64,000 nt of DNA from Escherichia coli (lineage in GTDB: Bacteria; Pseudomonadota; Gammaproteobacteria; Enterobacterales; Enterobacteriaceae), in the NCBI RefSeq assembly GCF_003790525.1, contig NZ_CP033635.1. One strand, written 5' to 3'. Shown here piece by piece: positions 24,239 to 24,893 of the stretch; the stretch's first letter is position 1, and every line of letters begins with the position of its first letter. The notes beneath the pieces were generated by a model. The model did not search any database. It saw only the letters and a list, made by a program, of their open reading frames with translations, and was not told the origin of the DNA. The position numbers and the translations under genes are program-made.

Positions 24239-24505
24239 ATGGATATTAACAACAAAGCCCGCATTCATTGGGCATGCCGCCGTGGTATGCGCGAACTCGA
24301 TATTTCAATCATGCCGTTTTTCGAACATGAGTACGACAGCTTAAGCGATGACGAAAAACGCATCTTTATTCGTCTGCTGGAATGTGACGATCCGGACCTG
24401 TTTAACTGGCTGATGAATCACGGTAAACCGGCCGATGCAGAACTGGAAATGATGGTCCGACTCATCCAGACACGGAACCGGGAACGTGGTCCTGTGGCAA
24501 TCTGA
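24239..24505 (+). CDS. sdhE: FAD assembly factor SdhE (CptB antitoxin, YgfY)
   Basis: 88-aa [26 protein letters not shown]; overlaps downstream ygfX by 20 nt. Confidence 0.9.
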
Positions 24506-24893
24506 TCTGCGCGTCTCCTGGCGCGCGCAGTGGCTTTCCTTGCTGATCCACGGGCTGGTTGCCGCTGTTATTTTACTCATGCCCTGGCCGCTCAGTTACA
24601 CCCCGTTATGGATGGTGTTACTTTCGCTGGTGGTGTTTGATTGCGTTCGCAGCCAGCGACGCATTAATGCTCGCCAGGGAGAAATTCGCCTGTTGATGGA
24701 CGGGCGTTTGCGTTGGCAAGGGCAGGAGTGGAGCATCGTCAAAGCGCCGTGGATGATTAAGAGCGGCATGATGCTGCGTTTACGTTCTGATAGCGGTAAA
24801 CGGCAACATTTATGGCTGGCAGCCGACAGCATGGACGAAGCCGAATGGCGGGATTTACGGCGGATATTGTTGCAACAAGAGACGCAAAGATAA
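24486..24893 (+). CDS. cptA: Inner membrane protein YgfX (CptA toxin)
   Basis: 135-aa ORF with two hydrophobic segments, translationally overlapped with sdhE. Confidence 0.85.

Follow-up and report, generated by a model that had tools for sequence, protein, structure and literature searches.

The sdhE–ygfX pair of Escherichia coli: an order-wide dual-coding junction, a predicted split-PH membrane protein and a contested toxin–antitoxin label

The 64,000-nucleotide stretch of Escherichia coli DNA analysed here (NCBI RefSeq assembly GCF_003790525.1, contig NZ_CP033635.1; hereafter the window) carries the genes sdhE and ygfX between positions 24,239 and 24,893. The locus is the known E. coli sdhE–ygfX (CptB/CptA) pair, which has already been described. 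We consider it probable that the pair constitutes a vertically inherited housekeeping operon in which a membrane partner of SdhE is translated at a low level by coupling to sdhE, and that it is not a selfish toxin–antitoxin cassette. This view is built on a 20-nucleotide junction conserved across the order Enterobacterales, on a strict genomic linkage of ygfX to sdhE, and on a predicted structure of YgfX in which a pleckstrin homology (PH)-like domain is interrupted by a transmembrane hairpin. The central features are the following.

24239–24505, plus strand: sdhE, a coding sequence (CDS) of 88 amino acids with an ATG start (list of open reading frames, RefSeq, and matches in Pfam, NCBIfam and PDB).
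24486–24893, plus strand: ygfX (cptA), a CDS of 135 amino acids with a GTG start, whose product is a small inner-membrane protein (list of open reading frames, RefSeq, Pfam and AlphaFold2 (AF2) model).
24486–24505, plus strand: the 20-nucleotide dual-coding overlap, in which the end of SdhE (R-G-P-V-A-I-stop) and the beginning of YgfX (M-V-L-W-Q-S-D) are both encoded.

The list of open reading frames (ORFs) and the RefSeq/PGAP annotation agree on both ends of each CDS. Accordingly, the identities of the two genes, their coordinates and the 20-nucleotide overlap given in a preliminary description of this DNA were exact, as judged by the ORF list, the family matches and RefSeq. The naming of the pair is split between databases: NCBI (RefSeq) uses 'FAD assembly factor SdhE' and 'protein YgfX', JGI and Pfam use 'antitoxin CptB' and 'toxin CptA'.

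A junction read in two frames

The ygfX frame is +1 relative to that of sdhE, and the shared nucleotides, 24486–24505, number exactly 20. The junction was compared across a set of loci from a motif scan with the SdhE alignment, which gave at least 596 matches; the 80 best were used, all of them from Enterobacterales and each from a different species. Six loci around metagenome relatives of YgfX, 21–37% identical to the E. coli protein, were added, and three copies of the query from E. coli also enter the counts out of 88 loci. The overlap measures 20 nucleotides in 74 of the 88 loci. Other lengths occur in a Pantoea/Erwinia-like group (26 nucleotides in seven loci), Tatumella (38 nucleotides) and three distant relatives (8–19 nucleotides), and the overlap has been lost only in one distant lineage, where a gap of 30 nucleotides separates the genes, and in Proteus penneri. 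The junction follows the consensus C GTG GyC CnG TGG CrA TsT GA, which encodes R-G-P-V-A-(I/M)-stop in the SdhE frame and M-(V/A)-(L/Q)-W-(Q/R/K)-(S/C)-(D/N) in the YgfX frame.

Among 70 species, the nucleotide information amounts to 1.63 bits per site in the overlap, compared with 1.17 bits in the part of the locus that encodes SdhE only and 1.00 bit in the part that encodes YgfX only. The third codon positions of sdhE rise from 0.67 bits outside the overlap to 1.41 bits inside it in the same species. Such a pattern is the signature expected if the overlap is read in both frames, each being under purifying selection. The freedom of third positions is largely lost within the overlap, which argues that both frames are read and that the GTG at 24486, not the codon for Met32, is the real start of ygfX. 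Judged by this constraint, the overlap is real and no artefact of a chance ORF.

An annotation artefact would imply that YgfX begins at the internal ATG of Met32 (MPWPLSY) and that the two genes do not overlap at all. GTG starts are indeed a minority among start codons, and a strong Shine–Dalgarno sequence is absent before 24486. However, ygfX has a GTG at the homologous position in 82 of the 88 loci, and residues 1–31 of YgfX show conservation throughout the family: S11 hardly varies, and W4 is present in at least 90% of sequences. The Pfam PF07254 alignment begins at residue 2, and residues 1–31 are modelled, with a predicted local distance difference test (pLDDT) score of about 95 (above 94), as strand 1 of the PH-like sheet followed by the first transmembrane helix. 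A protein starting at Met32 would lose one of its two transmembrane helices. Taken together with the dual-frame constraint, these points make a start at Met32 very improbable.

Several ORFs of 151–217 amino acids appear to be fusions of the Sdh5 and Cpta_toxin domains; they comprise P0003, P0004, P0006, P0007, P0012 and P0021 from metagenome assemblies and P0265 from NCBI. The fused ORFs noted in metagenome assemblies span 166–217 amino acids. Six of the fusion sequences were inspected and displayed six different junctions, and all clusters but one have a single member. A programmed frameshift producing an SdhE–YgfX fusion was considered and rejected: nearly all candidates are singletons with differing junctions and were treated as frameshift errors. 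The fusions resemble products of frameshift or assembly errors within the overlap or close to it.

Linkage and conservation of the pair

A 1.2-kb query around the pair was used to survey complete E. coli genomes at 95–100% identity. The locus was found in 5425 of 5426 genomes, and the median genome has it at one place; of all these places, 5425 lie on chromosomes and one on a plasmid. Across the wider set of loci, a match to the YgfX profile lies immediately 3′ of sdhE, on the same strand, in all 87 loci for which downstream sequence is available. The six distant YgfX representatives (21–37% identity) all adjoin sdhE as well, and all but one of them overlap it. Down to 21% identity, the loci examined include not a single YgfX lacking an adjacent upstream sdhE.

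The surroundings are similarly stable. The gene ygfZ is located upstream of sdhE in divergent orientation in 83 of 84 loci, among them those of distant relatives in which other neighbours have changed, and fldB is found downstream of ygfX in convergent orientation in 71 of 84. The order ygfZ, sdhE–ygfX, fldB is common to about 80 species of Enterobacterales.

SdhE, a flavinylation factor

24281–24295, plus strand: codons of the RGxxE motif (R15-G16-M17-R18-E19), from the translation.

The first gene of the pair encodes SdhE (YgfY) itself, the bacterial member of the family that includes mitochondrial Sdh5/SDHAF2 (PF03937), and no difference from SdhE was noted. The protein matches Pfam PF03937 (Sdh5) with 90.8 bits (cutoff 27; E 5e-26), the only family above its curated cutoff, and no DNA-binding domain is present among its domain matches. 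The NCBIfam equivalog NF008130 is matched over positions 1–88 of 88 with 198.4 bits (cutoff 120). The solved E. coli chains 1x6i, 6c12 (SdhA–SdhE) and 6b58 (FrdA–SdhE) are identical or near-identical to the protein (E 8e-59 to 2e-51). These PDB matches, together with five helices predicted at pLDDT above 90 in an AF2 model of an SdhE–YgfX fusion, point to the five-helix bundle fold of SdhE. A search for protein homologues returned at least 640 close relatives, and R14, R15, G16, E19, L20 and D21 are invariant in both SdhE alignments (A4 and A5).

SdhE is a small soluble factor that binds SdhA and FrdA through its RGxxE surface and promotes covalent attachment of flavin adenine dinucleotide (FAD), as crystal structures and genetics have established. 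That SdhE flavinylates SdhA and FrdA is summarised in PMC5042078 and PMC8621075, and the latter also summarises the literature on the role of the RGxxE motif in SdhA/FrdA binding. An E. coli ygfY mutant is devoid of succinate dehydrogenase activity and unable to grow on succinate (PMC5293155). Homologues of SdhE have been reported from alpha- and beta-proteobacteria and from eukaryotes (PMC5042078). In the literature on these other lineages Sdh5/SDHAF2 is not reported with a ygfX partner; the overlapping downstream ygfX is a gamma-proteobacterial feature.

YgfX, a predicted split-PH membrane protein

24519–24671, plus strand: transmembrane hairpin of YgfX, residues 12–31 and 36–62 with a PWP turn at 33–35 (DSSP assignment of the AF2 model).
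24678–24887, plus strand: predicted cytoplasmic PH-like beta-sandwich of YgfX (strands within 65–112, joined by the N-terminal strand 2–8) and C-terminal helix 118–134.

YgfX matches Pfam PF07254 (Cpta_toxin, formerly DUF1434) with 168.5 bits (cutoff 27.3; E 1e-49), and the alignment spans residues 2–131 of the protein and positions 1–132 of the 133 in the model. The family is small: among 1.84 billion proteins it comprises 135 representative clusters at the 50% identity level, and no sequence relatives of YgfX were found in PDB. An AF2 model based on 47 relatives reached a pLDDT of 95.8 and a predicted template modelling (pTM) score of 0.79. According to DSSP, the model consists of a strand (2–8), two helices (12–31 and 36–62), six strands between 65 and 112 and a C-terminal helix (118–134). 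YgfX is thus modelled confidently with a PH-like domain into which a transmembrane hairpin is inserted after strand 1; the seven-stranded beta-sandwich closed by a C-terminal alpha-helix that characterises PH-like domains is present in the prediction.

Conserved residues are found in both parts of the protein. In the turn of the hairpin, alignments A2 and A3 show an invariant W34, and A2 also a nearly invariant P33. The PH-like part contains the nearly invariant residues G65, D114, W121 and R122, D114 being present in at least 90% of the sequences in alignment A1. Work by McNeil in 2013 is said to have demonstrated the functional importance of the turn tryptophan and of a cytoplasmic aspartate in YgfX.

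The bacterial bPH families carry their domain after two transmembrane helices, whereas in the YgfX model strand 1 precedes the hairpin and the domain is split; no Pfam bPH family was matched even at E ≤10. With respect to PH-like domains in general, including eukaryotic PH and Ran-binding domains, a Foldseek search of PDB with the YgfX model returned nothing significant. Three of the 47 YgfX relatives in alignment A1 weakly match PF10003 (DUF2244, an integral membrane family; best E 0.009), which could represent a distantly related family in other proteobacteria.

Toxin, independent membrane protein or partner of SdhE?

CbtA/CbeA is the prototype for toxin–antitoxin systems of type IV; CbtA is soluble, prophage-encoded and unrelated in sequence to YgfX. 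Patchy presence, multiple copies and a mobile or variable context are the genomic marks of toxin–antitoxin modules. The sdhE–ygfX locus is single-copy and chromosomal, occurs in virtually every complete E. coli genome, as detailed above, and has a fixed synteny. Nor is the presumed antitoxin confined to neutralising a toxin or regulating its operon: it is an FAD assembly factor with solved complexes and has no DNA-binding domain. Neither SdhE nor YgfX matches the PADLOC defence models. The genomic behaviour of the pair does not fit a classical toxin–antitoxin module, because it is a single-copy core locus with order-wide synteny and a housekeeping 'antitoxin' and has no PADLOC match.

Several observations nevertheless weigh against a housekeeping operon for SdhE and a membrane partner. 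In E. coli, Masuda 2012 (as presented in PMC8621075) reported that overexpression of YgfX blocks growth and yields lemon-shaped cells, that YgfX binds FtsZ and MreB, and that YgfY counteracts these effects. In Acinetobacter, CptB rescues CptA toxicity in a dose-dependent manner (PMC8132199). As for the partnership itself, an interaction between SdhE and YgfX was not detected in Shewanella by two-hybrid assay (PMC8621075). AF2 modelling of an SdhE-(GGGGS)6-YgfX fusion from 52 paired rows gave a pTM of 0.50, with both halves at pLDDT above 90 and no confident docking, and yielded no coordinates or predicted aligned error. In Serratia, deletion of ygfX had no discernible effect on swimming, the one phenotype of a ygfX deletion considered here, although deletion of sdhE reduced it (PMC5042078); a role of YgfX in flavinylation therefore stays hypothetical.

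The first two of these observations would be accounted for by a genuine type IV system (CptB/CptA), in which YgfX is a membrane toxin inhibiting the polymerisation of FtsZ and MreB and SdhE moonlights as its antitoxin. The CptA/CptB system of Masuda 2012 consists of these very two genes: both are small and co-transcribed, the 'antitoxin' gene leads, and overexpression of YgfX was reported to cause defects in growth and shape. The antitoxin-first order and the small overlapping genes correspond to the usual layout of such systems, the Pfam family bears the name 'Cpta_toxin', and SdhE is called 'antitoxin CptB' in some databases. However, the phenotype has not been reproduced in two genera. According to PMC3985639, no toxin–antitoxin phenotype was seen in Serratia despite an interaction between SdhE and YgfX, and an interacting pair contradicts the definition of type IV systems, whose two proteins do not interact but oppose each other on a shared target (here FtsZ/MreB). 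In Shewanella, co-expression of YgfY did not rescue growth and made it worse, no change in cell shape and no binding to FtsZ or MreB were observed, and the growth defect of a ygfY and ygfX double deletion equalled that of the ygfY deletion alone (PMC8621075). The same study points out that overexpression toxicity is common among membrane proteins. The locus is, moreover, a core, single-copy and non-mobile one whose synteny is fixed across Enterobacterales and beyond, unlike mobile and patchy modules, and SdhE has a separate, structurally proven function. A genuine type IV system thus appears unlikely. The growth arrest and the lemon-shaped cells would most simply be explained by overload of the membrane with YgfX.

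The preliminary description was fair to the literature in noting earlier descriptions of the pair as a toxin–antitoxin system and an unclear role of its membrane partner. Filing the pair as a toxin–antitoxin-like module, however, went beyond the evidence, which is overexpression-based and unreproduced in Serratia and Shewanella, and the genomic hallmarks are absent.

The remaining observations would be expected if YgfX worked independently of SdhE, e.g., in membrane-protein insertion, in the envelope or in cell division, and the two genes merely shared a promoter, their linkage being a regulatory convenience. Apart from the Serratia swimming phenotypes, the negative two-hybrid result in Shewanella and the fusion model without confident docking, such independence would agree with the listing of YgfX in a YibN/YidC pull-down (PMC11997395) and with the range of SdhE in alpha- and beta-proteobacteria and eukaryotes (PMC5042078), which is far wider than the 135 clusters of YgfX. 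On the other hand, an adjacent upstream sdhE accompanies YgfX in every locus examined, and such strict one-sided linkage over this divergence usually reflects a functional link. An interaction between the SdhE and YgfX proteins has been reported in Serratia (PMC5042078; PMC3985639). Independence of the two proteins is therefore unlikely in our view. Since the linkage is one-sided, with no YgfX without sdhE and SdhE reported far more widely, it suggests that SdhE is what YgfX acts upon, or acts together with, at the membrane. YgfX would most likely serve as a multimeric membrane partner or tether of SdhE at the sites where complex II and fumarate reductase are assembled.

Probable coupled translation of ygfX

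24230–24238, plus strand: putative purine-rich, Shine–Dalgarno-like stretch AGGAAGAAG directly 5′ of the sdhE ATG, read from the sequence.

If the pair is a housekeeping operon, both genes would be carried on one transcript, and ribosomes that have just translated sdhE would start ygfX at the GTG located 20 nucleotides inside sdhE. Co-transcription of sdhE and ygfX has been reported in Serratia (PMC5042078) and is also known from Shewanella. Only weak GGAA or AAAGA motifs are found upstream of the ygfX GTG across the order. The fold of nucleotides 24440–24540 is no stabler than that of shuffled sequences (z −0.87), i.e., no RNA structure masking the start of ygfX was found in this segment.

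A natural experiment is provided by Proteus penneri ATCC 33519, the sole one of the 80 Enterobacterales loci without an overlap. An AT-rich insertion of about 470 nucleotides is located exactly at its sdhE/ygfX junction (L086:3277-3750). SdhE ends in an altered C-terminal tail (RMAEIVDKY), and ygfX has kept its GTG start, with a canonical AGGAG now located 12 nucleotides upstream. This arrangement is consistent with coupling in the other species.

Translational coupling of sdhE and ygfX is plausible, because the junction is conserved and dual-coded, the start codon is GTG, a good Shine–Dalgarno sequence is missing, and an AGGAG appears in Proteus penneri where the overlap has gone. The preliminary description had called the pair a typical translationally coupled arrangement. 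Its suggestion of coupling may well hold; the arrangement itself, however, is not typical, as 20 nucleotides differ from the usual overlap of 1 or 4 nucleotides. Five same-strand overlaps between CDSs occur in the surrounding 50 kb, and they measure 8, 4, 20, 1 and 4 nucleotides. Given that sdhE combines an ATG with AGGAAGAAG whereas the GTG of ygfX is buried and preceded by weak motifs, YgfX is probably produced in small amounts, chiefly by ribosomes that have come to the end of sdhE.

A possible analogy to EROS/CYBC1

In EROS/CYBC1, the chaperone of the NOX2 flavocytochrome, the PH domain is 'separated by H1 and H2', a transmembrane hairpin after which come six strands and a C-terminal helix; the protein gates the access of FAD (PMC11161758). 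The YgfX model has the same layout as EROS/CYBC1 (PDB 8kei chain D), in that an antiparallel transmembrane hairpin interrupts the PH domain, and both proteins are tied to the maturation of a membrane-bound flavoenzyme. The Foldseek alignment of the two is non-significant over 136 columns (E 0.65, TM-score 0.35) and sequence similarity is absent, so the resemblance represents an analogy of design and a source of hypotheses, and is no proof of homology. One may speculate that YgfX is the counterpart of EROS/CYBC1 in this sense: a split-PH chaperone that would hold SdhE, and thereby apo-SdhA or apo-FrdA, at the inner membrane and couple or gate flavinylation with docking to SdhCD or FrdCD. We put this forward tentatively and regard it as doubtful. 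We know of no reported binding of YgfX to SdhA, FrdA, SdhCD or FrdCD.

Neighbouring features

23016–23996, minus strand: ygfZ, encoding a folate-dependent protein of Fe–S/tRNA modification (Pfam YgfZ_barrel and GCV_T).
24897–24926, strand unassigned: stable hairpin in the 39-nucleotide gap between the convergent genes ygfX and fldB (RNA fold −18 kcal/mol, z −3.2).
24933–25454, minus strand: fldB, encoding flavodoxin 2 (Pfam Flavodoxin_1).

The conserved block at window positions 23016–25454 brings together ygfZ (Fe–S, folate-dependent), sdhE (FAD), ygfX (membrane) and fldB (flavodoxin), and its composition hints at a shared role in the maturation of redox enzymes. Beyond fldB, the RefSeq-annotated E. 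coli region continues with xerD, dsbC and recJ. The hairpin at 24897–24926 is probably the intrinsic terminator of fldB, an assignment made because its U-run lies on the minus strand; it may also end the sdhE–ygfX transcript and would then be bidirectional. A promoter scan of the plus strand upstream of sdhE found no sigma-70 consensus promoter.

No family reached the threshold in a scan with Rfam. The candidate RT-4 RNA inside ygfZ (window 23835–23940, minus strand) scored 27.6 bits against a gathering threshold of 73.5 (E 0.058) and was rejected as most likely a chance match. Elsewhere in the window, the RefSeq annotation of the identical region places the type I toxin gene ibsC at about 9380–9440, the 6S RNA gene ssrS, adjoining zapA, at about 10165–10350, and prfB with its programmed +1 frameshift at about 29030–30125.

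Implications

The locus itself is textbook E. coli and carries little weight as a discovery. A caution concerns its nomenclature: the names CptA and CptB have spread via Pfam and several annotation pipelines into censuses of toxin–antitoxin systems (e.g., PMC10790755), while the phenotype behind them is contested. Two handles on the function of YgfX are offered by the order-wide conservation of the 20-nucleotide dual-coded junction and by the confident split-PH model. Should the analogy to EROS/CYBC1 prove true, ygfZ (Fe–S), sdhE (FAD) and ygfX (membrane) would together form a locus at which complex II and fumarate reductase are matured, and overexpression of a chaperone would account for the 'toxin' phenotype as an artefact.

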